Shown here piece after piece: positions 11,116-34,689 of a stretch of DNA of 64,000 nt (position 1 is its first letter; each line of letters starts with the position of its first letter). Under the pieces are notes generated by a model. It was given only the letters and a program-made list of their open reading frames with translations. It searched no databases and was not told the DNA's origin. Source of the DNA: Clostridiales bacterium (GTDB taxonomy: Bacteria > Bacillota > Clostridia > Lachnospirales > Lachnospiraceae); NCBI GenBank assembly GCA_021201535.1, contig JAJQEU010000109.1:1998-65997 (forward strand), read 5' to 3'. Position numbers and translations under genes: made by a program.

Positions 11116-11433
11116 TTACGGAAAAATCTCCTGTATCACACTCCCGAAAATTTCTTCATTCTGCGGCGACAGGACCGTTTTCCCGTTGATATTCTCTTCT
11201 GTATCCTTCTGAATCCGGTTTTTCTCCCGCTGTGTGTTCATACTGCTCTGACTCAGCGCCAGTTTCGTCATTTCCTTTGTCTTTTCGGTCAGTTCCCGGA
11301 TCTGTCTCCGGCATCTTCGCACCGCAAACAGCGCGGCTATCATAAGTAAAAGCGTACACACCAGAAAACCGAGTATCAGTTCATCGGCATATGGCACGTA
11401 CCATGAATTGACCAGATAAAGTATCTGTTCCAT
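11116..11433 (-). CDS. Small single-TM hypothetical protein
   Basis: GGAGG RBS, one hydrophobic helix followed by a coiled segment. Confidence 0.65.
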   Translation of the reverse strand: MEQILYLVNSWYVPYADELILGFLVCTLLLMIAALFAVRRCRRQIRELTEKTKEMTKLALSQSSMNTQREKNRIQKDTEENINGKTVLSPQNEEIFGSVIQEIFP

Positions 11434-11753
11434 TCGCGCCTCCTTTCCGCCGGACCATTCTGTCCGCCTTGTACAGTTTAACAGAATTATTTCTTCGAAA
11501 AAAGAGGGACAGGCTGTCTTTTCGCCGCAAATTCCGACATTTTTCTTACAGTTAAATCATTTTCGTTCTTTTGAACCATCATGTACAAAATATTCCTCGA
11601 CCCGGAAACATGAGTCGTTTACCATAAAAAATCACAGAAAGAGCGGTTGACTTTTTTTTGTAAACATATACTATAATAGGAGTGAACTGATTTGAAACAG
11701 ACAGGACTGTTGACGCAGCCATCATTATCATATTGAACCAGAGGTCATTACAC

Positions 11754-12821
11754 ATGAAAAAAATCATTCTCACCGGCGGCGGTACTGCCGGACATGTAAC
11801 CCCCAATATTGCCCTTTTGCCGCGGCTCCGCGAGCTGGACTATGAGATTTCCTACATCGGTTCTTATCATGGCATTGAAAAGGGATTGATTGAAAAAGAA
11901 AACATTCCGTATTATGCGATCTCTTCCGGAAAGCTCCGCCGTTACTTTGACCCAAAGAACTTTTCAGATCCGTTTAAGGTGATGAAAGGATATCTGCAGG
12001 CCCGGCATCTGATGTTTAAACTGAAACCCGACATCGTCTTCTCCAAAGGAGGATTTGTCAGCGTTCCGGTGGTTCTGGCCGCAAAGCACGCAAAAATCCC
12101 CGTGATCATCCACGAATCAGACATCACGCCGGGACTCGCCAACAGGCTTGCCATCCCGTCGGCCACACGGATCTGCTGCAACTTCCCGGAGACATTAAGC
12201 CATCTTCCCGAAGGAAAAGCAGTCGTGTCCGGATCACCCATCCGCCGGGAGCTGCTTGACGGCGACAGGAAAAAAGCCTGTACATACACCGGGCTGACCC
12301 CGGACCGGCCGACCATCCTCATCATCGGAGGAAGCCAGGGTTCACAGGTGATCAATGAGGTTGTCCGAAGACTGCTGCCCGGGCTTCTGACCTCCTGGCA
12401 GATCATCCATCTCTGCGGCAAGGGGAATCTGGATCCGGCGCTTGCCGGAACTGCCGGTTATGTACAGTATGAATACATTAACGAAGAGCTCGCCGACCTG
12501 TTCGCAGCCGCCGATCTGGTCATCTCCCGCGCCGGTGCCAACGCAATCTGCGAGCTGCAGGCACTTGCGAAACCAAACATCCTGATCCCGCTGTCAAAGG
12601 CTGCCAGCCGGGGCGATCAGATTCTGAATGCGAGGTCTTTCGAGAAACAGGGATTCAGCTATGTGATCGAAGAGGAGCATCTGTCCGAAAATTCCCTTTC
12701 CGAGGCAATTTCCTCCGTGTGGGAGAATCGAAAAGATTATACCGCAGCTATGAAAGAGAGCCGGAAGACAGATGCCATCGAAATTATCGTCGGTCTGATC
12801 GAAGAGCTGAAAAAGAAATAA
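11754..12821 (+). CDS. murG: Undecaprenyl-PP-MurNAc-pentapeptide GlcNAc transferase
   Basis: TGGGTAGHV, GGFVS, HESD, GGSQGS and RAGA motifs. Confidence 0.96.
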   Translation: MKKIILTGGGTAGHVTPNIALLPRLRELDYEISYIGSYHGIEKGLIEKENIPYYAISSGKLRRYFDPKNFSDPFKVMKGYLQARHLMFKLKPDIVFSKGGFVSVPVVLAAKHAKIPVIIHESDITPGLANRLAIPSATRICCNFPETLSHLPEGKAVVSGSPIRRELLDGDRKKACTYTGLTPDRPTILIIGGSQGSQVINEVVRRLLPGLLTSWQIIHLCGKGNLDPALAGTAGYVQYEYINEELADLFAAADLVISRAGANAICELQALAKPNILIPLSKAASRGDQILNARSFEKQGFSYVIEEEHLSENSLSEAISSVWENRKDYTAAMKESRKTDAIEIIVGLIEELKKK

Positions 12822-12895
12822 TACCGATATATTCCGTTCGTATCCCTGCAATCGCGCAGAAGGCGGTTTTGCCTCTGCGCGGTGCATTTCAGTCA

Positions 12896-13321
12896 TTACA
12901 TATCCGTCATATTCAGCATCCCGGCAATCCCGGCAATCTCATCCGCGCTCAGTTCCGCATGATTCCATCCGAGCTTCTCTTCATTGCCGTCTCCGATGTA
13001 GCGCGGAATCAGATGCATATGGAAGTGGAATACAGTCTGTCCCGCCACCTCTCCGTTATTCTGTACGATATTAAAACCGTCACATTTTAAAACCTCTGTC
13101 ATCCGCGCAGCGAGCTTTTTAGCCAGAACGAACACTTTTGAAGCGTAATTATCCGGAAGCTCATAGATATTCGCGGCATGCGTCTTCGGCAGGATCAACG
13201 CGTGTCCCCTCGTCGCCGGGCTCGCATCCAGGATGACTGTAAACATCTCATCCTCATAAATCACGTTTGACGGGATATCTCCGCACGCCAGTTTACAAAA
13301 AATACAGTTGTCATCTTTCAT
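12896..13321 (-). CDS. HIT family nucleotide hydrolase
   Basis: CIFC N-terminus and the QTVFHFHMHLIPR histidine triad. Confidence 0.93.
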   Translation of the reverse strand: MKDDNCIFCKLACGDIPSNVIYEDEMFTVILDASPATRGHALILPKTHAANIYELPDNYASKVFVLAKKLAARMTEVLKCDGFNIVQNNGEVAGQTVFHFHMHLIPRYIGDGNEEKLGWNHAELSADEIAGIAGMLNMTDM

Positions 13322-13497
13322 ATAGTACCTCCTGATATAAATTTTGATTCGTCCATATAAACTATGTTTCTTTTTTATTATAAAAAAAATCGTTTCCAGT
13401 GTAAAGCTGATTTTATCCGGCGAAAATTAACCTCTACGATTTTACTCTTATCTGTGGTAGAATAGAAATCGTACCCGACCGGGCAGATAGAATCAAA

Positions 13498-13524
13498 GTA
13501 ACTGTGAAGATACTGAACCGCTAC
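13498..13524 (+). repeat. 27-bp REP-like repeat, copy 2
   Basis: GTAACTGTGAAGATACTGAACCGCTAC, 31 nt upstream of the mttB-family ATG. Confidence 0.75.
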
Positions 13525-13555
13525 GAATCAAACACTGAAAGGACACCATAGCATC

Positions 13556-14989
13556 ATGCAGGGAAGAATCAAATACAACGTCATGTCACCCGAAGAGCTT
13601 ACGCTCTTCAAAAACCGTATGGAGCGCCTCCTGTCAGAGCGCGGCGCACACATGAATCATCCGAAAATGAAGGAGGAACTGGCCGCCGCCGGATGCACGG
13701 TAACGGGCGACACAGTTCGTTTCCCGAAAGCAGTCATTGACCGGGCACTGGCCGCCGTTCCCCATACCTTTACGCTCTATGCACCGGATGAGACCTGTAA
13801 TATGACCTTCCCACATCCCGGGGGAAGCTTTTACACCAGAACCTGTACCGGCGCGCCGAATTATCTTCCCGTGGAAGGTGAAAAACACTATATAACACTG
13901 GCGGACACCGCAGAATGGTTCCATCTGGTGAACGAGATGGACCAGATTGATTATGTGGCACTGCCGTCCACCTGTGACGACAGCGTTCCCGGAAAAGCCA
14001 TCGATGTATTTACACTGGAAAAAGCACTTCAGATTTCCAGAAAACATATCTGGATCCAGCCCTATGAAACGGATAACACAAAATATCTGATTGAAATGTG
14101 CGCTGCAGCCGCGGGCGGAGCGGACAGGCTGCGTGAAAAGCCGATCTGCAGCTTTATCTCCTGCAGCGTCCCGGTTTTAAAGTTCAAATATATGGACGCC
14201 GAGATTTTATATGAATGCGCAAAAGCAGGCATTCCGGTCCAGCCCTGCGCACTTCCGACCGCCGGAGCCAACACACCGGTCACGGCACAGGGCACCGCTC
14301 TGGCGGCCTGCGCTGACGTGCTTGCCCAGATTGTGATGCTCGAGCTGCTCTGTCCGGGACTGCCGGTCATCGCCACTCCACTGCTGTTCTCCATGGACAT
14401 GCAGACCACTTATACCCTGCAGTCCAACACGGAAATTACGTTCGGACGTCTCATCTGCATGCAGGTGTTTGAACAGGGCTATGGCATCCCCTGTCATTCT
14501 TACGGCACGGGAACAGACAGCATGACCCTCGACGGACAGAATATGATCGAGCGCACTTCCCTCATCCACATGATGGCCATGTCGGATGCCAGCGTGCTGG
14601 GCGGCGCCGGCCAGATGGAAACAGCCAAGACCATCAATCCGCTGACGCTGATCATCGACAATGAGATTTTCGGCATCGCCAGACGTCTCCGCGCAGGGCT
14701 CGTCATTGATGATGAGACGCTCGATTTCGAGGAACTTCTGGAGGGAGACGATGAGGACGGTTATCTGATGAGCGATCACACGCTGGATCATCTGCGCGAT
14801 GCACATCGGCCGGAGCTGTTCTATAAAGGATATCTGCGCGATATTCGCGACGAGGAAAAAACAATTCTGGATCGCGCACTGGAAACATATGACACATTAC
14901 GAAAGCTTCCGGTTCCGTGTATGCTGGATGAAGAAGCTAAAAACACGGTTCACGCCATCGTGCTGCGGGCTGCGGAAGAACTGCAATGA
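13556..14989 (+). CDS. Trimethylamine methyltransferase (MttB) superfamily protein, non-pyrrolysine
   Basis: 477 aa with the MttB pattern (LSERGAHM...VRFPKAVIDRAL..VP, T..G...A.AD.LA, G.P.I, LIIDNEI, YLMSDHTLDH); uninterrupted ORF with no amber codon. Confidence 0.85.
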   Translation: MQGRIKYNVMSPEELTLFKNRMERLLSERGAHMNHPKMKEELAAAGCTVTGDTVRFPKAVIDRALAAVPHTFTLYAPDETCNMTFPHPGGSFYTRTCTGAPNYLPVEGEKHYITLADTAEWFHLVNEMDQIDYVALPSTCDDSVPGKAIDVFTLEKALQISRKHIWIQPYETDNTKYLIEMCAAAAGGADRLREKPICSFISCSVPVLKFKYMDAEILYECAKAGIPVQPCALPTAGANTPVTAQGTALAACADVLAQIVMLELLCPGLPVIATPLLFSMDMQTTYTLQSNTEITFGRLICMQVFEQGYGIPCHSYGTGTDSMTLDGQNMIERTSLIHMMAMSDASVLGGAGQMETAKTINPLTLIIDNEIFGIARRLRAGLVIDDETLDFEELLEGDDEDGYLMSDHTLDHLRDAHRPELFYKGYLRDIRDEEKTILDRALETYDTLRKLPVPCMLDEEAKNTVHAIVLRAAEELQ

Positions 14990-15048
14990 GAAGTAAATTA
15001 TATCATTAGATATTTGTCCTGACGCAGAACGATGAAAGGGATATTTTC

Positions 15049-15363
15049 ATGAAATTGACAAGAGCAGAAAAAATATGGCTTGCAGCCGTCATTATCTTTT
15101 ACGCATGCTACAACCTGCCTTTTGTGCCGGCCTACGGCCACGCGAAGGCAACCCTGATCCACGGATTGATGACGCTGATCCCTCTGTGGATTTCCGTTTA
15201 TATCGGTCTGGTAAAGATATGCCGGATCTACCGCCTGCGCGATTCGCAGACACAAAAATCCTCCTCCGGTGCAGAAATGCCGATGCCGGAAACAGACCCA
15301 AAAACATCTCTGCCGACACAGACAACAGACAGAGAAATAACGAAGGAGGATATGTCATGTTAA
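15049..15363 (+). CDS. Small two-TM membrane protein, likely partner of the solute:sodium symporter
   Basis: Two hydrophobic helices then a polar tail; overlaps the symporter start by 7 nt. Confidence 0.65.
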   Translation: MKLTRAEKIWLAAVIIFYACYNLPFVPAYGHAKATLIHGLMTLIPLWISVYIGLVKICRIYRLRDSQTQKSSSGAEMPMPETDPKTSLPTQTTDREITKEDMSC

Positions 15364-16886
15364 AAAGCTCTACCGTATGGATTGCCTTCCTGTTATATCT
15401 CGCATTTCTTCTGATCGTTGCACTGACAGAGAATATGCGTTCAAAACAAAAAAACGCCCGTGGCTTTGCAACGGCGGGCGGCAGCATCAAATGGCCGATT
15501 CTGGTGATGACCTACATCGCCTCCCTGATGAGCACCTGGGTCTTCTTCGCCGGTCCCGGCGCGTACTACCGGGGCGGCATCGGATACTGGGCATCGGAGC
15601 TGAGCTACATCTGCCTGTTTCCCGTCGTCGTACACTTTGTCATGAACAAAGTATGGATCACAAACAGCACCCGGAAATACACAACCCCTGCTGACTTTTA
15701 CTATGACCGATTCAAAAGTCCGCTGCTGCGGGTACTTCTGGCACTCATTTTTCTGAGCGCGTCCTTCCCCTATATCGCCAGCGTCCTGATCGCCATCTCT
15801 AAAGCCGCAGAGATTGCCACGGGCGGCGCCATAGCATACCGGCAGGTCGTAATCATCGTCGGTGTTGTGATCATCGCCTATGTCATGATCGGCGGATTAA
15901 AATCCATTGCGCTGACAGACACCATCCAGGGACTTGCTTATATCTCCATCCTCTGGATCATTGTATTTGCCTGCCTGTTTACCGCCTTCGGCGGTTCTCT
16001 TGGAAACGCCGTATCCACCATCTGGGAAAACACCAATGAATGGTTCTCCTACCCCGGTCCGGACGGCTGGGTTCCCTACAGTGCACGCTTCGGATACCCC
16101 TTAAGCTGCGCCATCGGCTGGACCGTTATGCTGCCCCACGTGTTTATCCGCTCCGGATACTCCGGCTCGGATCTGAACACCCAGCGGAAGCTGATGTTTC
16201 TGACGCCGCTTCTGCAGGCTTTTGTCTGGACCGGAACCATGATGATCGGTCTGGTCAGCATCGCCCTGCTGCCCGGCCTCAGCACGGATGAGACGGAATA
16301 CATCATTCCCTACCTGATCCAGAATATCATTCAGAACATCCATCCGAATATGGCTGTCGTCCTGATGATCTTTTTCTTTGTCGGTGCCGTCGCAGTGGGA
16401 ATCTCCACCGCAGATTCCTTTCTGCTGGTCACCGGCTCCATCATCTCGGAGGATCTGCTGCATCACACCTTCGGGATAAAAATGGGCGAAAAAAAACAGC
16501 TGCTGTCCGTGCGGCTCGTCATCCTGGCGGTCGGACTGATCAGCATCCTGTTCGCCATCAACCCGCCGGATCTGATCTTCACACTGATCATGTTCGCCAT
16601 CGCCATCGTCATGCCGCTGTTCCCGATCCTGGTGCTCGGCATTTACTGGAAAAAAGCAACAAAACAGGCCGCCGTCGTTTCCACCATCGTGGGCACGGTG
16701 CTCGTACTGATGACTTATTTCGTGTGGGATCTGGGCGGGTCCTGGTACGGAGCATTCGGGCTCGCAGGTTCGCTCGTGTGTATGATCGTGGTGAGCCTGC
16801 TGACACATCAGGATCCGGAGGATTCCAGAAAATTTTACGAGGCGCTGGAAAGCGGAGAACGGAAATACTATGATATCCAACCATAA
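15357..16886 (+). CDS. Sodium:solute symporter (SSS) family
   Basis: About 13 TM helices; MSTWVFFAGPG.YYRGG, DFYYDRF.S, GGLKSIALTDTIQG and ISTADSFLL; GGAGG RBS before the ATG at 15357. Confidence 0.9.
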   Translation: MLKSSTVWIAFLLYLAFLLIVALTENMRSKQKNARGFATAGGSIKWPILVMTYIASLMSTWVFFAGPGAYYRGGIGYWASELSYICLFPVVVHFVMNKVWITNSTRKYTTPADFYYDRFKSPLLRVLLALIFLSASFPYIASVLIAISKAAEIATGGAIAYRQVVIIVGVVIIAYVMIGGLKSIALTDTIQGLAYISILWIIVFACLFTAFGGSLGNAVSTIWENTNEWFSYPGPDGWVPYSARFGYPLSCAIGWTVMLPHVFIRSGYSGSDLNTQRKLMFLTPLLQAFVWTGTMMIGLVSIALLPGLSTDETEYIIPYLIQNIIQNIHPNMAVVLMIFFFVGAVAVGISTADSFLLVTGSIISEDLLHHTFGIKMGEKKQLLSVRLVILAVGLISILFAINPPDLIFTLIMFAIAIVMPLFPILVLGIYWKKATKQAAVVSTIVGTVLVLMTYFVWDLGGSWYGAFGLAGSLVCMIVVSLLTHQDPEDSRKFYEALESGERKYYDIQP

Positions 16887-16945
16887 TCAGGGAAATTCCC
16901 CGTAACTGTGAAAACACTGAACAGTTTATGGGGAATTTCCCTGAT
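16886..16945. terminator. Long hairpin between convergent genes with REP copy 3 in its loop
   Basis: 16-bp perfect inverted repeat ATCAGGGAAATTCCCC / GGGGAATTTCCCTGAT enclosing GTAACTGTGAAAACACTGAACAGTTTA (16902-16928). Confidence 0.75.
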
Positions 16946-17616
16946 CACTCCAGACAGTAAAGAGAACTGTCGCAAACGGCATCCGAACTGCCGGTCAAAA
17001 CCATCCAGAATCCATCCCGAAAGGGAATCTCCCGCTGCATAACCGGCAGTTCATCCACCACAGAAAAATAATCCAGTCCGTCTTTTAAGCCGACGCCGGT
17101 GTATTTGACATAACTCTCTTTATATGCCCACAATCTGCTGAACGCATCAAATCCGTGCTGTTCCAGCCATCGTATTTCAGAGGGATGGAAAAATCTCCGT
17201 GCCAGCTTCTCACCGTCCCCCGTGTGACAGGTCTGCAGATCCAGACCGACCTCTGCATCACTGACCGCACAAACCCAGACATCGCCGCTGTGTGAGATAG
17301 AAAAATGTACCTCCGGCAGTTCTTTCACATACGGCTTACCCTGTCCTTCCCGCTCAGCGGCCTCTGAAATACCTTCCGGATGACGGAATTCTCCCGTATA
17401 CGATCTGTCCGCATCTTCCCGGCGGCAAACGGTAATTTCTTTGATTTCCCGCCCGATATATCGGCTGATCGCCAGTCTCAGCAGCTCATGAGATTCGATT
17501 TTTTTGTCCCAGTCACAATAATATATAATCACTCTCATTATTTGCACGTTCGCCGACATATCCGATACAGTATCTCTCAGTTCATATCCGGAAAGAAACA
17601 GGATAGAAAACCGCAT
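16945..17616 (-). CDS. 4'-phosphopantetheinyl transferase (Sfp-type); start may be at 17538
   Basis: GKPY, HFSISHSG, VGLDLQ and W..KESYVKYTG.G motifs. Confidence 0.88.
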   Translation of the reverse strand: MRFSILFLSGYELRDTVSDMSANVQIMRVIIYYCDWDKKIESHELLRLAISRYIGREIKEITVCRREDADRSYTGEFRHPEGISEAAEREGQGKPYVKELPEVHFSISHSGDVWVCAVSDAEVGLDLQTCHTGDGEKLARRFFHPSEIRWLEQHGFDAFSRLWAYKESYVKYTGVGLKDGLDYFSVVDELPVMQREIPFRDGFWMVLTGSSDAVCDSSLYCLE

Positions 17617-17624
17617 CTCAGAGA

Positions 17625-18854
17625 TCAGTTATCCTCCGATCTGCCCTGATATCGCTCATACAACCGCCGAAACGCCGGCAGACTCCTCGACGCGACCTCG
17701 TCCGGCACACAGTAGGAGATACGCACCCATCCCGGCCCATAGAATGCGGTACCCGGCGCCATAAGGATTTTTTCCTGCTTTGCCGCCTCACAGAATACGG
17801 CGTCATCATCCTCCAGCGCCTTTACGAACAGATAAAACGCACCGTCCGGATGGATACAGGTATAACCGATCTCACGCAATCCGTCATACAGGATGTCTCT
17901 GGTCTTTTTATAAATACTGATATCCACCGAGGCGTCCACGCACTTCAGCAGCATCTTCTGCTGAAGAGTCGGCGCGTTGACAATGCCGAGATACCGCATG
18001 GAAGCCGTCAGACCGGCATACAGGTCACGCATATCCTGTACGCAGGGTTCCATCGCTATGTAGCCAATCCGCTCGCCGGGGATGGAGAGCGCCTTGCTGT
18101 AGGAATAGACAACGATCGTATTCGGATAATAATGTGTCAGGTACGGTACCTCAATATCATAGGCGAGCTTCCGATACGGCTCATCCGACACCAGGTAAAT
18201 CGGATGGCCGAACTCCTCCTGTTTTTTCTTCAGAATATCTGTCACCGCGCGGATCGACGCGTCCGTGTAGACAGCACCGGTCGGATTGTTCGGCGTATTA
18301 ATCAGCACAAAACGGGTGCGCGGAGTAAGCGCTGCCTCGAAAGTCTCCGGGTCCGGCTGCAGGGTCTCCATATTGCAGTAAGCAGGAACCAGCTTCCCGT
18401 AGAAAGACTCCACATAGCTCTTGTACTCCCAGAAATAAGGTGCGAAAGTGACGACCTCATCCCCCTGATCCAACAGTGTGTTGGCGATCATGGCAATCGC
18501 GGACGCAGCTCCGACCGTCATGATAATACCATCCTCATCATAACTGCAGCCGAAAGTCTCATTCAGATAATTCGCAATATGCGCGCGCACCTGCGGATAA
18601 CCGACATTCGCCGGGTAACCGTGCAGTGAAAGTGAGTTTTCCTCTTTCAGAATCTCGATCATAGATTCATTAACAACAGCCGGTGGTTCCACACTGGGAT
18701 TACCGATTGTAAAATTGAAAATATTCTCGCTGCCGTAGACGGCGGCCATTTTCTTCCCCTCTTCAAAAATATCCCGGATACAGATTGCTGCGTCCAGAGA
18801 TTTCCGTAAACGTTTTGCTATCATAGCCTTCTCCTTCATTCTGTCCTCCGGCAC
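17625..18854 (-). CDS. PLP-dependent class I/II (aspartate-type) aminotransferase
   Basis: NFTIGNP, NTPNNPTG, SDEPY, YSYSKALSIPGERIG and P.GAFY. Confidence 0.92.
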   Translation of the reverse strand: MPEDRMKEKAMIAKRLRKSLDAAICIRDIFEEGKKMAAVYGSENIFNFTIGNPSVEPPAVVNESMIEILKEENSLSLHGYPANVGYPQVRAHIANYLNETFGCSYDEDGIIMTVGAASAIAMIANTLLDQGDEVVTFAPYFWEYKSYVESFYGKLVPAYCNMETLQPDPETFEAALTPRTRFVLINTPNNPTGAVYTDASIRAVTDILKKKQEEFGHPIYLVSDEPYRKLAYDIEVPYLTHYYPNTIVVYSYSKALSIPGERIGYIAMEPCVQDMRDLYAGLTASMRYLGIVNAPTLQQKMLLKCVDASVDISIYKKTRDILYDGLREIGYTCIHPDGAFYLFVKALEDDDAVFCEAAKQEKILMAPGTAFYGPGWVRISYCVPDEVASRSLPAFRRLYERYQGRSEDN

Positions 18855-19013
18855 ACCCCTCTAAATACCACGAGTTCAGCGTCTGAAGACGTATTTTATC
18901 CGTTATTTTATCGCCCGAACGCTTTAAAGCGTTAAAGCAATAAATACGTAAACTATGATAGCATATCTGTGAAAAAAATAAAAGGAAAAATTTCCTTACG
19001 CGCCCCTGTACAC

Positions 19014-25318: not shown

Positions 25319-25716
25319 CCTCCTTTATCAAAATTTATATCATTCGCCAACGCTTAAAACCCGTGTGTACGTCTTCTGCATATATGCGCTATATTCGCGC
25401 GCATGACTTCCACTATTTTCCACGCTGTCCGATTTATGCCATGCATTTTACCCCAACAGCCGAATCTTGTCAACACGAAATACGGTGGCTGCAAGAAGTA
25501 TCGCTGAAAACTGCACAATTTATGTGCCCGGTTTTTTTGATTTCCCTTGATTTCTATGTAAAATTTTACCAAAGCCTTGATTTTTCATACATTTTTTCCC
25601 ACTTTTTGTACAATTTTTCTGGATTTTATCAATTAAGATGCTATAATAGATTTATGCTTTGAAAACCGATGTTTCAAGGCAGTCATATTATTCATCATTC
25701 ATTAGGAGGGAAAGAA

Positions 25717-26394
25717 ATGGCTAAGACAAAAGTTATTTCTGCGAAAGAAGCAGGCGCTCTCGTAAAAGACGGCGATACCGTACTGATCGGCGGCTTCATG
25801 ACAAACGGAACAGCAAAATCAATCGTACATGAAGTAACGGCAAAGGATCTGACCGTTGTATGTAACGACGCAGGATTCCTGAACGAAGGCACCGGCCGTC
25901 TTCTCGCAAACCATCAGGTAAAGAGACTGATCGCGACACATGTAGGTCTGAACAAAGAATGCGGACAGCAGTATAATGAAGGCATTCTTGATCTGAAGCT
26001 TCAGCCGCAGGGCACACTCGCCGAGCAGGTTCGTGCGGGCGGCGCGGGACTGGGCGGATTTCTGACACCCACCGGCGTCGGCACGATCGTTGCGGACAGC
26101 TCCTCACCGACTACTCTGGAGGGCAAACAGCTCATCGAACTGGACGGCAAAGAGTATCTTCTGGAGAAGGCGATTCGCGGCGACGTCGCCATCGTTCAGG
26201 GTTATATCGCTGATGAGTCCGGCAATATCCGCTATAAAGGCTCCATCCGCAACTTTAACGTACTGATGGCATCCGCAGCAGATACCGTTATCGTAGAGGT
26301 CGAGAAGATCGTTCCGGCCGGCGAGATCGGACCGAACTATGTAGAGACCCCGCACATCTTCGTTGATTACTTAGTATTAAAGGAGGAAGCATAA
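25717..26394 (+). CDS. 3-oxoacid/acetoacetate CoA-transferase, alpha subunit (AtoD/CtfA-like)
   Basis: [35 protein letters not shown] and RNFN..MA. Confidence 0.92.
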
Positions 26395-26395
26395 G

Positions 26396-27052
26396 ATGGA
26401 AAGAAGCGAGATTAAACCCTTTATCGCAAAACGTGTTGCAAAAGAGATCCATGACGGCGATGTTGTAAACCTCGGCATCGGACTTCCGACGATGGTTCCT
26501 GACTATGTAGACCCGACCATTAAGATTACCCTGCAGTCCGAGAATGGTTTTATCGGCTTGTCTGCCGTTGATCCGGACTCTGACGACGCACCGTACACTG
26601 TAAACGCAGGTGGACAGCCGGCGGGTATCGAGAAGGACGGTATGTTCTTTGACTCTTCCATCTCCTTCGCCATCATTCGCGGCGGACACGTGGACGCTAC
26701 CGTACTCGGCTCCCTTCAGGTAGATGAGAAGGGCAATATCGCGAACTGGATCATCCCCGGCAAGATGGTTCCGGGCATGGGCGGCGCGATGGATCTGGTT
26801 GTCGGCGCCAAAAAGGTGATCGTTGCGATGGAGCACACCCAGAAGGGTGCGCCGAAGATCTTAAAGGAGTGCACACTTCCCCTGACCGCAAAAGGACAGG
26901 TAAATCTTATCGTGACCGAGATGGCTGTGATCGAAGTGACTCCGGACGGTCTGGTGCTGACCGAGTACAACCCTGAGTTTACCGTAGAAGAGATTCAGGC
27001 TGCCACGGAAGCGGAACTGACCATCTCCCCGGACCTGAAACCGATGGTATAA
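26396..27052 (+). CDS. 3-oxoacid/acetoacetate CoA-transferase, beta subunit (AtoA/CtfB-like)
   Basis: VNLGIGLPT, catalytic QSENG, IRGGHVD and GMGGAMDLV. Confidence 0.92.
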
Positions 27053-27142
27053 AACCAGTCGTATCATATGACATGAGTTTTTCTGTCTGCGAAAACCGTA
27101 TTCCGGTTTTCCGACGTCAGACACAACATCATCATATATGTT

Positions 27143-27179
27143 AAAAACAGGAGAACATGCTACTGTCTCCTGTTTTTTT
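27143..27179 (+). terminator. Intrinsic terminator after the CoA-transferase pair
   Basis: AAAAACAGGAGA-loop-TCTCCTGTTTTTTT. Confidence 0.8.
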
Positions 27180-27309
27180 ATGTTTTTATGGGGTCAGACC
27201 CCGGCAAGAAATTATAAACTTTCTGAATTTTTTATAAAATCGCATCCCTTAAAATCATATTCTTCGATTGTTTTCGTTCATTTTCGCTTCCTGAAATCGA
27301 CGCATTATT

Positions 27310-27464
27310 TGTTGTTTCAACAGTTTTTTGCTTTTGTTTGTAAAATTCAACAAATCCTCTTTGGTAATTTTATGCAATATATCCATTGACTTTCTGTAAA
27401 AAATCAGCTATTTTATAATCACAAATTGTTGAATTAAAAGTTTTAAAATTGTCATTTCAACAAG
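27310..27464. promoter_or_regulatory. Candidate promoter and operators of the hexitol operon
   Basis: TTGACT (27386) with a 17-bp spacer to TATTTT; repeated TGTTG/TTCAACA half-sites at 27310-27322, 27343-27355, 27425-27435 and 27454-27464. Confidence 0.45.
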
Positions 27465-27480: not shown

Positions 27481-28413
27481 ATGATCTACACGGTTACACT
27501 AAACCCGGCGCTTGACAAGACGGTCGAGATTCCGTCCCTGACCATCGATTCCGTAAACCGCATCACTTGCATGCGCACGGATCCGGGCGGAAAGGGAATC
27601 AACGTATCCAAAGTTATCTCAAAGCTGGGCGGAAAAAGCACCGCCGTCGGCATCCTCGGCGGAAACACCGGATATTCAATCGCAGCCGCGGTCAAGGCCA
27701 TGGGGATTAAGACCGGATTCCTGTTTGCAGAGGGCGAAACCCGCACCAACATGAAGATCGTGGATCCGGTTCTGCACACCAATACCGACATCAACGAGCC
27801 AGGCTTCGAGGTTCCGAAAGAAGTTACGGAACAACTTCTTCAGAACGTACTCGGCAAACTGACAGCGAAGGATATCGTAGTCCTCTCCGGCAGCATCCCA
27901 CAGGGATGCCCGAAGACCGTCTACCGCAAATGGATCAGCGCATGCGGCAAAAAGGGCGCGCGCGTCATCCTGGACGCAGACGGAGAACAGTTCGCGGCAG
28001 GGCTTGAGGCGGGACCTTATCTGATCAAGCCGAACCATCACGAACTCTCCGCGCTGATGGGCAGAGATTTGAACACACCGGTAGAATTGGGACGCGCGGC
28101 GCACGAGCTTCAAAAGCGGTACGGCATCCGGAAAATTGTCGTCTCAATGGGCAGTGCAGGCGCACTGTATGTATCGGCAGGAGAAATGATTCACGCGGAA
28201 GGTCTGCGGGTACCGGTCGGAAGCACGGTCGGCGCCGGGGACAGCGTGGTGGCGGCTCTGGCCCTGGCGGAAGAAAAAGACATGGTTCTCGCGGAGGCAG
28301 CCCGTCTCTCCACCGCGACGGGCGCGGCAAACGTGATGTGCAACGGCTCGCAGGCCGCAGAATACGAAACGGTTAAAGAACTTCTGCCGAAAGTGATCCT
28401 TCATCACTTTTGA
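27481..28413 (+). CDS. 1-phosphofructokinase-family hexose-phosphate kinase (FruK/LacC type PfkB)
   Basis: TVTLNPALD, GGKGINVS, LIKPN..EL, VSMG..GA and STVGAGDS. Confidence 0.9.
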   Translation: MIYTVTLNPALDKTVEIPSLTIDSVNRITCMRTDPGGKGINVSKVISKLGGKSTAVGILGGNTGYSIAAAVKAMGIKTGFLFAEGETRTNMKIVDPVLHTNTDINEPGFEVPKEVTEQLLQNVLGKLTAKDIVVLSGSIPQGCPKTVYRKWISACGKKGARVILDADGEQFAAGLEAGPYLIKPNHHELSALMGRDLNTPVELGRAAHELQKRYGIRKIVVSMGSAGALYVSAGEMIHAEGLRVPVGSTVGAGDSVVAALALAEEKDMVLAEAARLSTATGAANVMCNGSQAAEYETVKELLPKVILHHF

Positions 28414-28462
28414 ACTTGTAAAACAAAAACAGATTGATTATGATAGAAAGGAGTTTTGTATA

Positions 28463-29734
28463 ATGAAAGCAAAAGGTGTACGTCTTCACGGCGCCAATGA
28501 TCTCAGACTGGAGGAATTTGAGCTCCCGGAGATCACAGACGATGAAATCCTGGTAAAGGTCGTCTCCGACAGCATCTGCATGTCCACCTACAAGTGCGCG
28601 ATTCTGGGAACGGAACACAAACGCGTACATGAAGATGTGGCCGAACATCCCGCGATTATGGGACATGAGTTTGCGGGCGATATCGTGAAGGTCGGCAAAA
28701 ATCATCAGGAAAAATTCAAACCCGGCATGAAATTTACACTCCAGCCGGCACTGAATTACAAGGGAACCATGTGGAGTCCGGGATACTCCTACGAGTTTTT
28801 CGGAGGAAACACCACATACTGCGTCATCCCCTCAGAGGTCATGGAGCTCGGATGTCTACTGGAATACAGAGGAAAGGCTTACTACGAGGCATCCCTGGCG
28901 GAACCGATGTCCTGCAGTATCGGCGCCTTTCACGCAGCCTACCACACAAAGATGGGTGTTTACAGCCACCATATGGGCATACGGGAAGGCGGTAAACTCG
29001 CTATCATGGCGGGAGCCGGTCCGATGGGTCTTGGCGCCCTGACCTATGCGCTGCACTGTGATATACGGCCTTCTCTGGTCGTTGTAACTGACCTGAATCA
29101 GGAACGTCTCGATCGCGCCTCGCAGTTGTTCCCGCCTGAAGAAATCGCAAAGGAAGGCATCCGGCTTCTCTTTGTCAACACCGGAAGCACCTCGGATCCC
29201 GTACAGAATCTGCTGGCTATCACCGACGGCACCGGATATGACGATGTGCTCTGTTATGCTCCGGTTGCCTCTGTCATCACCCAGTCAAGTGCCATTCTCG
29301 GCCGTGACGGCTGCCTGAACTTTTTTGCCGGACCGACGGACAAAAAATTCAGTGCAGAGATGAACTTTTATGATGTCCACTACAATTCTACACACGTAAT
29401 GGGTACCACCGGAGGCAATACGGAGGATATGATTGAATCCCTGCAGCTGACCGAACAGGGTCGCATCAATCCCGCGGTCATGGTAACTCACATCGGCGGT
29501 CTTGACGCCGCAGCGGACACCACGCTGAATCTGCCGAAGATTCCGGGCGGCAAGAAACTGATCTACACGCATCTGGCCATGCCGCTGACCGCGCTGACGG
29601 ACCTGAGAAAAACCGGCGAAGCACAGCAGGATGAGCGAATGATTGCTCTGGCGGACATCGTGGACGCGCATATGGGACTGTGGAGCCCTGAAGCGGAGGA
29701 ATATCTGCTTCAAAACTTTATCACTGAAGAATAA
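28463..29734 (+). CDS. Zn-dependent sugar-phosphate dehydrogenase, SorE/YggP family
   Basis: SDSICMSTYK, GHEFAG, ASLAEP, AGPMG, DGCLNFFAGP, VHYNSTHV and IPGGKKLIY match recalled E. coli YggP / sorbose-1-P reductase motifs. Confidence 0.85.
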   Translation: MKAKGVRLHGANDLRLEEFELPEITDDEILVKVVSDSICMSTYKCAILGTEHKRVHEDVAEHPAIMGHEFAGDIVKVGKNHQEKFKPGMKFTLQPALNYKGTMWSPGYSYEFFGGNTTYCVIPSEVMELGCLLEYRGKAYYEASLAEPMSCSIGAFHAAYHTKMGVYSHHMGIREGGKLAIMAGAGPMGLGALTYALHCDIRPSLVVVTDLNQERLDRASQLFPPEEIAKEGIRLLFVNTGSTSDPVQNLLAITDGTGYDDVLCYAPVASVITQSSAILGRDGCLNFFAGPTDKKFSAEMNFYDVHYNSTHVMGTTGGNTEDMIESLQLTEQGRINPAVMVTHIGGLDAAADTTLNLPKIPGGKKLIYTHLAMPLTALTDLRKTGEAQQDERMIALADIVDAHMGLWSPEAEEYLLQNFITEE

Positions 29735-29787
29735 CTGTCAGGATTTCCTGTTCGCGGAATCCTGACACGAACAGGAGGATAAACTAT

Positions 29788-30549
29788 ATGGATACTATGG
29801 AAGCTCGCAGAAATGCGATTGCCCAACTAATTGATGACAACGGAACAATAAGTTTTTCACAGCTGAAGGAAGCCTTTCCGGACGTTTCGGAAATGACGCT
29901 GCGCACAGATCTGAAATGTCTGGACGAGGCAAGGCGGATTCTTCGCGTACATGGGGGAGCCAAATCCGTACAGGTTGTAATCGGAACGGACGATCTGCTG
30001 AAACGTAAGTCCATCCGCAATATTTCCCAAAAGCAGATGATTGCCGAAAAAGCAGTGACATTGCTTCGTCCGGACACTACCATTTTTCTGGATTCCGGCA
30101 GCACTACGACCACACTGGCCCGGCAGTTTCCGGATCAGTCCTATCTGATCTACACGACCGGCCTGAGTTGCGCAACAGAGCTTTGCGGCCTGTCCGCCCC
30201 CACGGTCATGCTCCCCGGAGGAATGCTGAACCGCTACAGCCAGAGCGTATTCGGTTTTTCCGCGATAAAAGAACTGGAAAGGGTCAATTTTGACCAGGCC
30301 TTTCTCGGAATTACCGGTTACCATGCATCGTCCGGTTTTTCCTGCGGCATCAGTGACGAAGCGATTCTGAAGCAGACGGCAATCCGCCAGTCGGAACAGG
30401 TCATTGCGCTTATGGATTCCTCAAAGGTTGATATCAAATGCAGCTTCTCCATCTGCGGTCTGACAGATGTGGACATCATTGTCTCCGATGGGAAACTGCC
30501 GCAGGAATTTCTTTCGGAATGTGAGAGATACGGCGTTCAGGTGATATAG
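29788..30549 (+). CDS. DeoR/GlpR family transcriptional regulator
   Basis: VSEMTLRTDL HTH, RVHGGA and IFLDSGSTT. Confidence 0.93.
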   Translation: MDTMEARRNAIAQLIDDNGTISFSQLKEAFPDVSEMTLRTDLKCLDEARRILRVHGGAKSVQVVIGTDDLLKRKSIRNISQKQMIAEKAVTLLRPDTTIFLDSGSTTTTLARQFPDQSYLIYTTGLSCATELCGLSAPTVMLPGGMLNRYSQSVFGFSAIKELERVNFDQAFLGITGYHASSGFSCGISDEAILKQTAIRQSEQVIALMDSSKVDIKCSFSICGLTDVDIIVSDGKLPQEFLSECERYGVQVI

Positions 30550-30658
30550 TCCGCAGGCAGGTATACCGGGAAATACTGACAGTTTCCTTTGCTGCAGCAG
30601 ATTAAAAGTCTTCGGTTTGGGCAATTCTCTATAGTAGTTGTGTAAGGGAGAATTACTC

Positions 30659-32533
30659 ATGAAAACAAAAGTACAGAGTTTTGGTAAATTCTTATCGGCA
30701 ATGGTAATGCCGAATATCGGCGCGCTGATCGCATTCGGCCTTCTCGCCGCGCTGTTTACGGACAACGGCTGGATCCCCAACGAGGGATTTAACAGCATCG
30801 TCAGTCCACTGCTGACCTACCTGATCCCGATCCTGATCGCCTCCACCGGCGGCAAGCTGGTCGCAGGCGAACGCGGACGGATCGTCGGAGCCATCGCGGT
30901 GGTCGGAGCCATCATGAGCGACACCAGCATCACGATGCTGATGGCCGCCATGGTCATGGGACCGCTGGCAGGCTTCTGCATGAAAAAATTTGACCAGTTT
31001 ATGGAAGGGCGGATGCCGGCAGGCTTCGAAATGCTGATCAACAACTTTTCCGCGGGCATCATCGGCATGCTGCTCGCCATCGTCGGTTACCTCGTCATCG
31101 GTCCGATCATGTCGGCCGTGCTGGTCGTGCTTTCGGGCGGCGTCAATATCCTGGTAAACAACGGGCTGCTCCCGCTTGTCGCGATTTTTATCGAACCGGC
31201 GAAGGTACTGTTTTTGAACAACGCGATTAACCACGGCATCTTCACACCGCTCGCGACAGCGCAGGCGGCGGAGACAGGCAAGTCCATCATGTACATGCTT
31301 GAGCCAAACCCCGGCCCCGGACTCGGCGTCCTGCTCGCCTACATGTTCTTCTGTAAAGATAAAAAGACAAAGGATTCGGCTCCGGGCGCTGTCATCATCC
31401 ACCTGCTCGGCGGTATCCATGAAATATATTTCCCATATATTCTGATGAATCCATTGGTGATCATTGCACCGATTGCGGGTAATATCGTAGCAATTTTCTG
31501 GTTCAACCTGACCGGCTGCGGACTGGTAGGACCGGCATCCCCCGGTTCCATCATCCTTTACCTGATGATGACGCCGGCATCCGACATGTTGAAAGTAATT
31601 ATCGGCGTGGCGATTGCAACAGCGATCTCCTTCCTCATCGCCTCTCCCATTGTCCGGAGAGCCGGCGGCAAGAGTCTCGAGGAAGCACAGCAGGAGGTAG
31701 CGTCACGAAAAGCAGAAGCAAAGGGGCTTACTGCAGAAGTCACTTCCGATGTGACAGTGAAATCTTCTGAAGTCAGAAAAATTATCTTTGCCTGCGATGC
31801 CGGCATGGGGTCCTCCGCGATGGGCGCGACAAAATTCCGCAACCGGATCAAAGCCCTGCGGCCGGATATTTCCGTAACAAATACATCCGTAGATACCATC
31901 CCGCCGGACTGCGATATCGCTGTTGTACAGACAACGCTGGCGGCCAGAGCGCAGAAATCAGCACCGCAGGCGGAGCTGATCACGATCGGAAACTTCCTGG
32001 CGGACCCGGCACTGGATGATCTGTACGAGCGGCTGACCTCGGGAGATAAAACGGTCATTGAAAGTAAAACAGAAAATACAGCTGAACGCGCCGCATCAGA
32101 AGAACCGGCAAAACCTCAGGTTATTATCGCGGACGGCATTAAGCTCGGTCAGAAACCCGTTTCCAAAGAGGACGCCATCCGGGCAGCCGGTGAACTTCTG
32201 GAAAAACTCGGCTATGTCGACCACAGCTATGTCGACGCTATGCAGGAGCGCGAAAAACTCACTACCACCTACATGGGCATGGGCGTTGCGATCCCCCACG
32301 GCACATCCGAAGCGAAGGGGCAGGTAAAAAAGACCGGCATCGTCTTCCTGCAGTATCCCGATGGCGTTGACTTCGGCGAGGAGAAAGCACAGCTCGTCTT
32401 CGGTATCGCAGGCATCGGCGATGAACATTTGGATCTTCTGGCAAAAATCTGCACCATGCTGGAGGATGAGGATCGTCTGGAAACACTGAAGACTACAGGC
32501 GACGCAGACTGGGTATTGGAGCAATTGACGTGA
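30659..32533 (+). CDS. mtlA: Mannitol-family PTS EIICBA
   Basis: VQSFGKFLSAMVMPNIGA, NNAINHGIF, GGIHEIYFP, EIIB FACDAGMGSSAMGA and EIIA GVAIPHGT; substrate not proven. Confidence 0.85.
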   Translation: MKTKVQSFGKFLSAMVMPNIGALIAFGLLAALFTDNGWIPNEGFNSIVSPLLTYLIPILIASTGGKLVAGERGRIVGAIAVVGAIMSDTSITMLMAAMVMGPLAGFCMKKFDQFMEGRMPAGFEMLINNFSAGIIGMLLAIVGYLVIGPIMSAVLVVLSGGVNILVNNGLLPLVAIFIEPAKVLFLNNAINHGIFTPLATAQAAETGKSIMYMLEPNPGPGLGVLLAYMFFCKDKKTKDSAPGAVIIHLLGGIHEIYFPYILMNPLVIIAPIAGNIVAIFWFNLTGCGLVGPASPGSIILYLMMTPASDMLKVIIGVAIATAISFLIASPIVRRAGGKSLEEAQQEVASRKAEAKGLTAEVTSDVTVKSSEVRKIIFACDAGMGSSAMGATKFRNRIKALRPDISVTNTSVDTIPPDCDIAVVQTTLAARAQKSAPQAELITIGNFLADPALDDLYERLTSGDKTVIESKTENTAERAASEEPAKPQVIIADGIKLGQKPVSKEDAIRAAGELLEKLGYVDHSYVDAMQEREKLTTTYMGMGVAIPHGTSEAKGQVKKTGIVFLQYPDGVDFGEEKAQLVFGIAGIGDEHLDLLAKICTMLEDEDRLETLKTTGDADWVLEQLT

Positions 32534-32669
32534 TGCATCCGCTATACCACACAAATACGCCTGTAGATTTCGGACAAAGCCGAAGAAGAACGACAGAAGG
32601 AAGCCTTTCACATTGCAACAATTTAACACTACTATATAACACTACCATAAATAACAGGAGGAATTTACT

Positions 32670-32933
32670 ATGAAGACATTTGAGTACACAATCAAAGATA
32701 ACGAAGGTATCCACGCACGCCCGGCCGGACTGCTCGTAAAGGAGATTGCAAACTACGAATCAGCAGTTTCCATCACATCCAACGCCACCGGCAAAAAAGT
32801 AAAAGCCAGCAGCGTCATGATGCTGATGACCCTCGGCGTGAAGAAGGGCATGACCATCACAGTGACCGTAGAGGGAGCCGACGAAGACAACGCCGCGGCA
32901 GGCATTCAGGCATTCCTGAAAGCAAACCTGTAA
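32670..32933 (+). CDS. ptsH: Phosphocarrier protein HPr
   Basis: GIHARPA (His15); 87 aa. Confidence 0.92.
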   Translation: MKTFEYTIKDNEGIHARPAGLLVKEIANYESAVSITSNATGKKVKASSVMMLMTLGVKKGMTITVTVEGADEDNAAAGIQAFLKANL

Positions 32934-33075
32934 TCAAAGGTGCGATTCACAGTGTATTGGTTTTTGAAAACAGAGTCGTCGTGCCTGCACGTAAGAAACT
33001 GTTTTCAGACGCCAATACAACCTGTGAAGAGGGGGACTGTGAAGCGTAACCCTCATTTTTGAAAGGAGAAGCCAC

Positions 33076-34689
33076 ATGGAACAATACACAGGCAAATCCA
33101 TTTTTAAGAAAATTGCGATTGGCAGGGTTTACCTCTATCAAAAAAAAGAAAACTCCGTGCGCCGGGAGCATGTAGAAGACGTTGAGCAGGAAATCAAACG
33201 CTTTGAGGCGGCAAAAACCGTCGCCCTCGGCCAGCTGGAACGCATCTACCAGAAAGCCTTAAAGGAAGTCGGCGAGGACAACGCCGCCGTGTTCGAAGTT
33301 CACATGATGATGATGGACGACGAAGGCTTTGTTGACTCCATCTGCCACATTATCCGGGAACAGAAGGTGAATGCGGAGTATGCCGTGGCGACAACCGGCG
33401 ACAATTTTTCCGCCATGTTTGCTCAGATGGACGACGATTACATGAGAGCCCGCGCGGCGGACGTCAAGGACATCTCCGAGCGTCTGGTCTCCGTACTGTG
33501 CGGCAGGGAAACCGACATGGGCAGCCTGGACGAGCCGGTCGTTCTGATGGCGGATGATCTGGCGCCCAGCGAGACCGTCCAACTGGACAAAGCAAAAATT
33601 CTCGCCTTCGTGACCCGCCATGGCTCCTCAAATTCCCACACAGCCATTCTGGCCCGCACCATGAACATCCCGGCGATCATCGGCATCGACGTGCAGGATG
33701 AATGGAAGGGAAAAACCGTTATCGTGGACGGATATACCGGAAATGTGACCATCGATCCGGATCCGGAATACCTGAAGACCATGACAGAAAAAATGCAGGC
33801 GGATGTGAAAAAGCAGGAGCTGTTAAAAGAACTGAAGGGAAAAGAAACCGTCACGAAAAACGGACGAAAAATCCATCTTTACGCCAACATCGGCGGCGTA
33901 AAAGATGTCGCCTCCGTCCTGCAAAACGACGGCGAGGGCATCGGCCTGTTCCGGAGTGAATTTCTCTATCTCGAATCCGACGATTTCCCCACGGAAGAGG
34001 AGCAGTTCCAGGCATACAAGACCGTAGCCGAAAACATGGCCGGCAAAAAGGTCATCGTGCGGACACTGGATATCGGCGCGGACAAACAGGTCGATTATTT
34101 CGGTCTGGCAAAAGAGGACAATCCGGCGATGGGATATCGCGCTATCCGCATCTGTCTGGATCAGCCGGAAATCTTCCGCACGCAGCTACGGGCGCTCCTT
34201 CGGGCCAGCGCTTACGGAAACATCTCCATCATGTTCCCCATGATCATCTCCGTCCAGGAGGTGCTGGAGTGTAAACGAATCCTCGCAGAAGTGAAAGCTG
34301 AATTGAAAGCAGAGGGTATCGCGTACAAGGACGTGGAAGTGGGCATCATGATTGAAACGCCGGCCTCCGTCTGGATCAGCGAAGAACTCGGACGCGAAGT
34401 CGATTTCTTCAGCATCGGCACCAACGACCTGACCCAGTACACGCTGGCAATCGACCGGCAGAATGCGAAGCTGGACAACATCAACGATCCGCACCATCCG
34501 GCCGTCCTGCGGTCCATTCAGACCGTCATCGAAAACGGTCACAAGGGCGGCGCCTGGGTCGGCATCTGCGGCGAACTCGGCGCGGATACCACACTGACCG
34601 AAACCTTTGTGAATATGGGAATCGATGAGCTGTCCGTATCGCCGTCGTTTATCCTGCCGGTGCGGGACGCCGTGAGGAAGCTGGATTAA
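33076..34689 (+). CDS. ptsI: PTS enzyme I
   Basis: GSSNSHTAILAR, GIGLFRSE, RTLDIGADK, FSIGTNDL and GICGE. Confidence 0.96.
   Translation: MEQYTGKSIFKKIAIGRVYLYQKKENSVRREHVEDVEQEIKRFEAAKTVALGQLERIYQKALKEVGEDNAAVFEVHMMMMDDEGFVDSICHIIREQKVNAEYAVATTGDNFSAMFAQMDDDYMRARAADVKDISERLVSVLCGRETDMGSLDEPVVLMADDLAPSETVQLDKAKILAFVTRHGSSNSHTAILARTMNIPAIIGIDVQDEWKGKTVIVDGYTGNVTIDPDPEYLKTMTEKMQADVKKQELLKELKGKETVTKNGRKIHLYANIGGVKDVASVLQNDGEGIGLFRSEFLYLESDDFPTEEEQFQAYKTVAENMAGKKVIVRTLDIGADKQVDYFGLAKEDNPAMGYRAIRICLDQPEIFRTQLRALLRASAYGNISIMFPMIISVQEVLECKRILAEVKAELKAEGIAYKDVEVGIMIETPASVWISEELGREVDFFSIGTNDLTQYTLAIDRQNAKLDNINDPHHPAVLRSIQTVIENGHKGGAWVGICGELGADTTLTETFVNMGIDELSVSPSFILPVRDAVRKLD

Follow-up and report, generated by a model that had tools for sequence, protein, structure and literature searches.

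A mannitol-type phosphotransferase operon of Lachnospiraceae that pairs a SorE/YggP-family dehydrogenase with a 1-phosphofructokinase: a proposed route through fructose-1-phosphate

We analyzed a 64,000-nucleotide stretch of DNA (the window) from a Clostridiales bacterium, a gut anaerobe of the Lachnospiraceae (GCA_021201535.1, contig JAJQEU010000109.1), in which six co-directional open reading frames (ORFs) occupy positions 27481-34689 of the + strand. The genes encode a FruK-type kinase, a zinc-dependent dehydrogenase of the SorE/YggP family, a DeoR-type regulator and three components of the phosphoenolpyruvate (PEP)-dependent phosphotransferase system (PTS), namely a mannitol-family Enzyme II (EIICBA), HPr and Enzyme I (Table 1). 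An earlier sequence-only reading had named the same six genes, all of which we found where it had placed them, and had suggested that they form an alternative mannitol pathway. We consider it probable that the unit is a mannitol catabolic PTS operon in which mannitol-1-phosphate would be oxidized at C2 to fructose-1-phosphate (F1P) and F1P then converted by FruK to fructose-1,6-bisphosphate (FBP).

Table 1. Genes and DNA features of the mannitol-type PTS locus, in positions of the window
Feature	Position	Strand	Evidence
Hairpin and T-run at the end of the upstream CoA-transferase operon	27146..27179	+	ACAGGAGA...TCTCCTGT followed by TTTTTTT
Candidate promoter/operator region	27309..27464	+	Promoter-like site, palindrome, half-sites
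1-phosphofructokinase (fruK-type, PfkB family, 310 aa)	27481..28413	+	TIGR03828 match, GAGD motif
SorE/YggP-family zinc-dependent medium-chain dehydrogenase (423 aa)	28463..29734	+	ADH_N and ADH_zinc_N; identity to YggP and SorE
DeoR-family regulator (253 aa)	29788..30549	+	HTH_DeoR and DeoRC
Mannitol-family PTS EIICBA (624 aa from ATG 30659; 631 aa from TTG 30638)	30659..32533	+	PRK15083
HPr (87 aa)	32670..32933	+	His15 motif GIHARPAG
PTS Enzyme I (537 aa)	33076..34689	+	TIGR01417, 629 bits; all three PEP-utilizer domains

The EIICBA scored 747 bits against PRK15083 (cut-off 589), in agreement with its earlier assignment to the mannitol family, and is 51% identical to E. coli MtlA and 48% to CmtA. 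The cysteine motif of its IIB domain (CDAGMGSS) and the histidine motif of its IIA domain (PHGT) are conserved in the alignment with E. coli MtlA, and fructose-EII models match only the IIA domain, far below their cut-offs. Public gene calls take the 624-aa form of the protein; the in-frame TTG further upstream would add 7 residues. In its EIICBA and phosphorylation motifs the window resembles the classical mannitol PTS operons (E. coli mtlADR and the mtlARFD or mtlAFD operons of Firmicutes), and the expected product of uptake is mannitol-1-phosphate. In the classical pathway, mannitol-1-phosphate is oxidized at C5 by MtlD (EC 1.1.1.17) to fructose-6-phosphate (F6P). The window, in contrast, carries a zinc-dependent medium-chain dehydrogenase and a 1-phosphofructokinase (1-PFK) instead of MtlD, a long-chain polyol dehydrogenase (PF01232), and a DeoR-type regulator instead of MtlR; the predicted entry into central metabolism is from F1P to FBP rather than at F6P. 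Searches of the whole window by tblastn with E. coli MtlD, E. coli MtlR and the MtlR type with PTS regulation domains (PRD) gave no match even at E <= 10, which bears out the earlier claim that mtlD and mtlR are missing. For mtlD, the absence covers both the 64-kb window and the 80 related loci described below.

We assign the dehydrogenase to the SorE/YggP subfamily of zinc-dependent medium-chain dehydrogenases, the type proposed for it before. The protein is 54% identical to E. coli YggP over 419 aa and 48% identical over 416 aa to SorE of a Serratia plasmid, which is encoded in a canonical sorC-sorD-sorFBAM-sorE operon; no equivalog-level model was matched in the family search. The family is compact, with a length of about 420 aa and 253 clusters at E <= 1e-30 in a search of 1.8 billion cluster representatives. 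The closest homologues (86-96% identity) are labelled Lachnospiraceae, Mediterraneibacter, Enterocloster and Anaerobutyricum, and the protein is abundant, individual 90%-identity clusters being found on 220 and 308 contigs. Homologues appear in public records as ‘zinc-binding dehydrogenase’, ‘threonine dehydrogenase-like’ or ‘sorbose-1-P reductase’ (‘L-sorbose 1-phosphate reductase’). The zinc ligands C39, H68, E69 and E147, of the polyol-dehydrogenase type, are invariant or nearly so and align to the zinc site of sorbitol dehydrogenase; the cysteine cluster for a structural zinc is absent. VVTD comes directly after the Rossmann motif GAGPMG, and its aspartate suggests NAD rather than NADP as the cofactor; some distant family members carry G/S-R at that place. 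We found no solved structure for any member of the family, the nearest sequences in the PDB being sorbitol dehydrogenases. An AlphaFold2 model built with 100 homologues (mean predicted local distance difference test score 93.4, predicted TM-score 0.91) has a medium-chain dehydrogenase fold with a C-terminal helical extension, and its Foldseek neighbors, which are butanediol, threonine and sorbitol dehydrogenases with about 20% identity, indicate the generic fold only.

To characterize the genomic context of the family, one genome per species was scanned with the family alignment, yielding at least 597 confirmed relatives. The best 80 of these at least 597 relatives, with dehydrogenases 59-88% identical to the window protein, made up the locus set; ORFs were called in each locus and compared with a panel of reference proteins, and all neighbors were clustered. 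A mannitol-family EII lies within 7 kb of the dehydrogenase in 59 of the 80 loci. At least 42 of these 59 PTS-linked loci contain a PfkB/1-PFK kinase, which in 36 is the immediate upstream neighbor of the dehydrogenase and co-directional with it. The gap between fruK and the dehydrogenase is typically about 60 nt (38 same-strand upstream pairs), and in some loci the two genes overlap. In 31 of the 59 loci the dehydrogenase gene is followed by one for a DeoR orthologue, and three of these 31 also have a PRD-type regulator. In 23 of the 80 loci we found a 700-aa regulator with HTH_11, Mga, two PRD and EIIA_2 domains, a protein that we identify by its sequence as MtlR, the mannitol activator of Firmicutes; it is the sole regulator in 20 PTS-linked loci. 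Not one of the 80 loci contains an MtlD homologue.

The loci fall into four architectures. In type A, to which the window belongs, the order is fruK-yggP-deoR-mtlA(IICBA) with or without ptsH-ptsI (Lachnospiraceae, some Erysipelotrichia and Coriobacteriia). Type B has mtlA divergent from mtlR-fruK-yggP-deoR (Agathobaculum, Butyricicoccus, Faecalibacterium), type C has mtlA(IICB)-mtlR-mtlF(IIA)-fruK-yggP with or without HPr-EI (Clostridium, Caloramator, Alkaliphilus, Halanaerobium, Geosporobacter), and type D has mtlA-mtlF-deoR-fruK-HPr-yggP (Sporomusa, Anaerospora). The mtlA-mtlR(PRD)-mtlF backbone of the related loci is that of the classical mannitol operons, and by its gene content type C is the classical mtlARFD operon with mtlD exchanged for fruK and yggP. 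Five additional loci (L088-L091 and L093) agree with this arrangement. They come from Clostridium thermarum, C. estertheticum, Alkaliphilus metalliredigens QYMF, Pelosinus sp. UFO1 and Caloramator sp. E03; four, in complete or near-complete genomes, were reached via MtlR and one via the dehydrogenase. Independent gene calls and Pfam searches of these loci returned PTS_EIIC/IIB, the PRD regulator, EII, PfkB and ADH_N/ADH_zinc_N, and a Mannitol_dh gene in none of the five. As a control, we looked for relatives with the classical mtlARFD order via MtlR homologues and found none, as all five loci sampled carried fruK-yggP. Linkage of a mannitol EII, a 1-PFK and a YggP-type dehydrogenase is found in Lachnospiraceae, Oscillospiraceae, Coriobacteriia, Clostridiaceae, Halanaerobiales and Negativicutes. 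We also observed that in many clostridial loci (L056, L058, L060, L066, L071, L084, L088, L090, L091) two mannitol EII genes, one for IICB and one for IICBA, flank mtlR; the IIC domains of each pair are near-identical within a genome, suggesting recent tandem duplicates rather than two specificities.

The kinase reached the equivalog level of the 1-PFK model TIGR03828 (326 bits, cut-off 292), as expected from its earlier description as a 1-PFK-type enzyme, and its ATP-site motif TVGAGDS (GAGD) is intact. Against the tagatose-6-phosphate kinase and Pfk-2 models it scored 160-173 bits with cut-offs of 353-469 (LacC, 160 vs 410; Pfk-2, 173 vs 353). The kinases of seven distant loci likewise all scored above the 1-PFK cut-off (316-352 bits vs 292) and below those for tagatose-6-phosphate kinase and Pfk-2. 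The predicted reaction is the phosphorylation of F1P at C6. In Roseburia, Agathobacter and Lachnoclostridium (L020, L022, L031, L032 and L035) we observed a yggP-deoR-mtlA unit, related to type A, that has no dedicated kinase. Each such unit adjoins a second operon with a canonical 1-PFK, HPr and Enzyme I, so that these loci still have a FruK next door; the neighboring 1-PFK is 36% identical to the window kinase, and the operon of L020 also encodes a 683-aa EII. The presence of this second, canonical 1-PFK operon in relatives suggests that the window FruK is a paralogue dedicated to the mannitol unit. The combination of a DeoR-type regulator with a 1-PFK, and of F1P as the intermediate, recalls the fructose operon fruR-fruK-fruA. 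Unlike the fructose operon, however, the window has an EII of the mannitol rather than the FruA type and a dehydrogenase placed between uptake and FruK.

The chemistry of SorE provides a second line of argument. To our knowledge, SorE is the only characterized member of the SorE/YggP family, and it acts on a 2-keto-1-phosphate. It reduces the C2 carbonyl of L-sorbose-1-phosphate to D-glucitol-6-phosphate, which is identical to L-gulitol-1-phosphate. L-Sorbose and D-fructose differ at C5 only, as do L-gulitol-1-phosphate and D-mannitol-1-phosphate, and in Fischer projections the new C2 center has the same configuration in both alditol phosphates. Because the two series are C5 epimers of equal configuration at C2, a SorE-like site that accepts the other epimer would interconvert D-fructose-1-phosphate and D-mannitol-1-phosphate, and not glucitol-1-phosphate. 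This reasoning matches the residues around the zinc site, as V31, T42, A71 and A143, which flank the zinc ligands, are found both in the clade linked to the mannitol PTS and in E. coli YggP with its cmtAB linkage, whereas A, S, C and G occupy positions 31, 42, 71 and 143 in SorE and its closest relatives. The known reaction of SorE and the linkage to FruK together suggest that oxidoreduction takes place at C2 of a ketose-1-phosphate/alditol-1-phosphate pair. We propose that the dehydrogenase is an NAD-dependent mannitol-1-phosphate 2-dehydrogenase yielding F1P. Genomic linkage and stereochemistry thus lend support to the alternative mannitol pathway that had been read from the window.

The window dehydrogenase and SorE share subfamily, length class, zinc ligands and a (predicted) action at C2 beside the C1 phosphate, but they differ in the predicted physiological direction, which is oxidation for the window protein, in the substrate series, which would be that of the C5 epimer, and in T42, A71 and A143 in place of S, C and G. 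We evaluated the possibility that the dehydrogenase is a true SorE, which would reduce L-sorbose-1-phosphate, and the locus a sorbose pathway, as might be gathered from its 48% identity to a SorE encoded in a canonical sor operon and from the name under which some close homologues are deposited. The PTS of the window is of the mannitol type rather than the mannose/sorbose type of the sor operon and is not accompanied by a glucitol-6-phosphate dehydrogenase, and neither a sorFBAM-type EII nor a sorD gene was found in any of the 59 PTS-linked loci. Together with the different zinc-flanking residues of SorE, which groups with another clade, and the failure of a carrier of the locus to grow on L-sorbose (Halanaerobium polyolivorans, below), this makes a sorbose pathway highly improbable.

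The proposed route also bears on E. coli yggP, which was said to lie beside the cryptic cmtAB genes and to be uncharacterized. In E. coli K-12 the gene order is indeed cmtB-cmtA-yggP-yggF-fumE-yggC (L001:5977-11331; 3073976-3079330), and yggP is annotated as a ‘putative zinc-binding dehydrogenase’ only. The genes that follow yggP encode the class II fructose-1,6-bisphosphatase YggF, FumE (formerly YggD) and the P-loop protein YggC. Within the compared set, the closest relatives of E. coli YggP are mannitol-PTS-linked clostridial proteins, at 58% identity. The cmtBA-yggP-yggF cluster and the window have in common a mannitol-family EII and a YggP dehydrogenase with the same zinc-flanking residues; the E. 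coli cluster differs in its split IICB and IIA, in the lack of a kinase and of DeoR, in the presence of YggF, FumE and YggC, and in that E. coli keeps mtlAD. A pathway that delivers carbon as FBP would have a use for a fructose-1,6-bisphosphatase, and one that delivers F6P would not need it, so that the presence of YggF favors the F1P route.

Several observations weigh against the proposed route. One is that some PTS-linked loci lack a 1-PFK within 7 kb, 13 by the automated count of loci with adequate flanks and about 12 after correction, since L041 had been counted as kinase-less yet has FruK. Loci of this kind would be in keeping with a dehydrogenase that is a non-homologous analogue of MtlD and oxidizes mannitol-1-phosphate at C5 to F6P, with the PfkB kinase acting as a 6-phosphofructokinase or linked for another reason, such as the use of fructose from a separate PTS. 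The EII, MtlR and MtlF context would be the same in that case, as it points to mannitol-1-phosphate as the substrate and not to the carbon that is oxidized, and Pfk-2 itself belongs to the PfkB family. The tested kinases, however, reach the 1-PFK equivalog cut-off and less than half of the cut-off for Pfk-2, and the kinase is the immediate upstream neighbor in 36 loci, whereas the classical mtlD operons have no kinase (E. coli mtlADR, which we examined, and the mtlARFD operon of Firmicutes, from the literature). In addition, the one reaction known for the family takes place on the carbon that neighbors the phosphate ester, and these anaerobes already possess glycolytic phosphofructokinases. 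We regard oxidation at C5 as quite unlikely.

A further point concerns the substrate of the transporter. A tree built from IIC domains places the clostridial EIIs of the related loci with E. coli MtlA (55-64% identity), and for type C loci the assignment of mannitol as the EII substrate is strong. The EII clade of the window stands apart in this tree, at a similar distance from E. coli MtlA and CmtA, so that its substrate could be another polyol. For the window EII, homology, the common dehydrogenase clade and the presence of the MtlR family in type B loci suggest mannitol. The family can also change its specificity, since a sister clade about 60% identical to the window dehydrogenase lies in a context without a PTS. 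This clade, which is 55% identical to SorE, was observed in a cluster with the order deoR, yggP-like gene, E2 lipoyl acyltransferase, E3, a fused E1 alpha/beta (824 aa), a short-chain dehydrogenase/reductase, a 430-aa protein of unknown function and an FGGY kinase (L062, L065, L073, L079 and L086, at about 10001-19000 in each; L092:8001-19130, Thermoclostridium stercorarium CP110889). It retains every basic residue that we considered as a phosphate ligand; among the conserved lysines, arginines and histidines, all of which are common to both clades, we found none that separates the PTS-linked from the non-PTS clade. The sister-clade cluster looks like an unexplored polyol or sugar-phosphate route that would end in a cleavage dependent on thiamine diphosphate and lipoamide.

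An alternative is that the EII imports glucitol, an uncommon hexitol or arabinitol, the phosphate of which the dehydrogenase oxidizes to another ketose-1-phosphate, or that the dehydrogenase works in reverse, reducing F1P to mannitol-1-phosphate as a fermentative electron sink. Besides the separate position of the window EII, the retention of cmtAB-yggP beside a working mtlAD in E. coli is a hint of non-identical roles, and SorE is physiologically a reductase. Yet in Clostridia this dehydrogenase clade occurs in linkage with EIIs that cluster with MtlA (61-64% identity), with MtlR and with MtlF; the kinases are 1-PFK equivalogs and not kinases of tagatose or other ketoses; and the pairing of an uptake EII with a kinase speaks for catabolism. 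Further evidence comes from H. polyolivorans, in which the locus (L070, NZ_JAJFAT010000001, 279126-300373) has the order mtlR-EIICBA-fruK-yggP-HPr. Mannitol supports growth of this organism, whereas sorbitol, dulcitol and L-sorbose do not (PMC10536098), which argues against the latter three as sources of the substrate of its orthologue. Considering both sides, we judge a different substrate or the reverse direction to be unlikely.

The same report on H. polyolivorans is at odds with our proposal in one respect, as it credits the use of mannitol to a mannitol PTS and mtlD and states that the genome has mtlD (PMC10536098). No MtlD homologue was found within 10 kb of L070, which is the only mannitol EII locus that we saw in the organism. 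The published assignment of the pathway may need checking. With mtlD in H. polyolivorans, as that report has it, and both mtlD and yggP in E. coli, the two routes can coexist and the ‘replacement’ of mtlD is not universal.

We further analyzed the boundaries of the window operon. The hairpin at 27146-27179 forms the 5’ boundary of the PTS transcription unit; it was read from the sequence by eye and was omitted by the terminator scan because its loop exceeds 8 nt. Directly upstream of the hairpin (25669-27052) lie genes for subunits A and B of a coenzyme A (CoA)-transferase of the AtoDA/ScoAB type, which recur in contigs of metagenome-assembled genomes (MAGs) of the same species (L002 and L005). 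The downstream neighbors are an unrelated YhcG nuclease and an ATP-binding cassette transporter on the opposite strand. The terminator on one side and unrelated genes on the other suggest that the six PTS genes are a discrete unit. An ORF at 27138-27389 (83 aa) was rejected as a gene, as it has no family match and overlaps the terminator and the AT-rich promoter region. Enzyme I aligns to positions 2-539 of the 565 of TIGR01417 and lacks the last ~25 C-terminal positions of the model; the 537-aa form was called in four public contigs, which suggests that the shortened C-terminus is genuine. An identical dehydrogenase and an identical gene order are present in the MAGs GCA_021203165 and GCA_021203225. 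When public sequencing runs were searched with words from the locus, the best runs contained at most 12% of the sampled words.

The region in front of fruK contains a promoter-like site (27386-27414) upstream of the ribosome-binding site, and an imperfect 38-bp palindrome (27426-27463; arms TTGTTGAATTAAAAGTTTT and AAAATTGTCATTTCAACAA) lies between the two. Additional half-sites of the form TTGTTG..CAACA are located at 27309-27322 and 27344-27353. Among pooled upstream sequences from the window and 12 window-type loci, the k-mer TGTTTCAA/TTGAAACA is present in 11 of 26. The half-site variants of the window, TTGTTGAA/TTTCAACA, occur upstream of fruK in 11 of these 13 loci and upstream of the EII gene in none. 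The region is likely the DeoR operator, and the DeoR protein a probable repressor of the operon; the position of the half-sites ahead of fruK, with none ahead of the EII gene, suggests a single DeoR-controlled promoter for the whole unit.

From these results we propose the following sequence of events. Enzyme I and HPr would relay the phosphoryl group of PEP to EIICBA, which would import mannitol as D-mannitol-1-phosphate. The SorE/YggP-type zinc dehydrogenase would oxidize C2, next to the phosphorylated carbon, probably with NAD+, to give D-fructose-1-phosphate. The FruK paralogue would then use ATP to convert F1P to FBP, which ordinary aldolase would cleave. The DeoR protein probably represses the operon at the palindromic operator just upstream of fruK and would be released by F1P or mannitol-1-phosphate. 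In this scheme the identities of the genes, their intact catalytic motifs, their order and their linkage in several phyla are observed, and we infer the substrate of the EII, the regiochemistry and cofactor of the dehydrogenase, the substrate of the kinase and the effector of the regulator. The full-text literature that we searched, about 8.3 million papers and preprints in which most subscription journals are missing, contained no description of a route from mannitol-1-phosphate to F1P or of a function for yggP, and mannitol catabolism via F1P is probably a variant not previously described.

For the family as a whole, we lean towards the view that the YggP branch consists of mannitol-1-phosphate 2-dehydrogenases. 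Together with FruK, they would form a route from mannitol-1-phosphate through F1P to FBP that is a major, and perhaps the predominant, one in gut Lachnospiraceae and Oscillospiraceae, many Clostridia, Halanaerobiales and Negativicutes. The same view would assign functions to E. coli yggP and the cmt genes, with YggF returning FBP carbon to hexose-6-phosphate. Sugar alcohols, mannitol included, are common in the diet and in pharmaceuticals, and Clostridia rank among the principal gut organisms that consume them; pathway predictors keyed on mtlD would score the carriers of this operon as mannitol non-users. If the proposal is correct, central carbohydrate metabolism would gain an enzyme activity and a pathway variant, both of them new. 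F1P, which is known as a regulatory metabolite, would then also be an intermediate in the breakdown of polyols, and yggP and cmtAB of E. coli would have their first functional handle.

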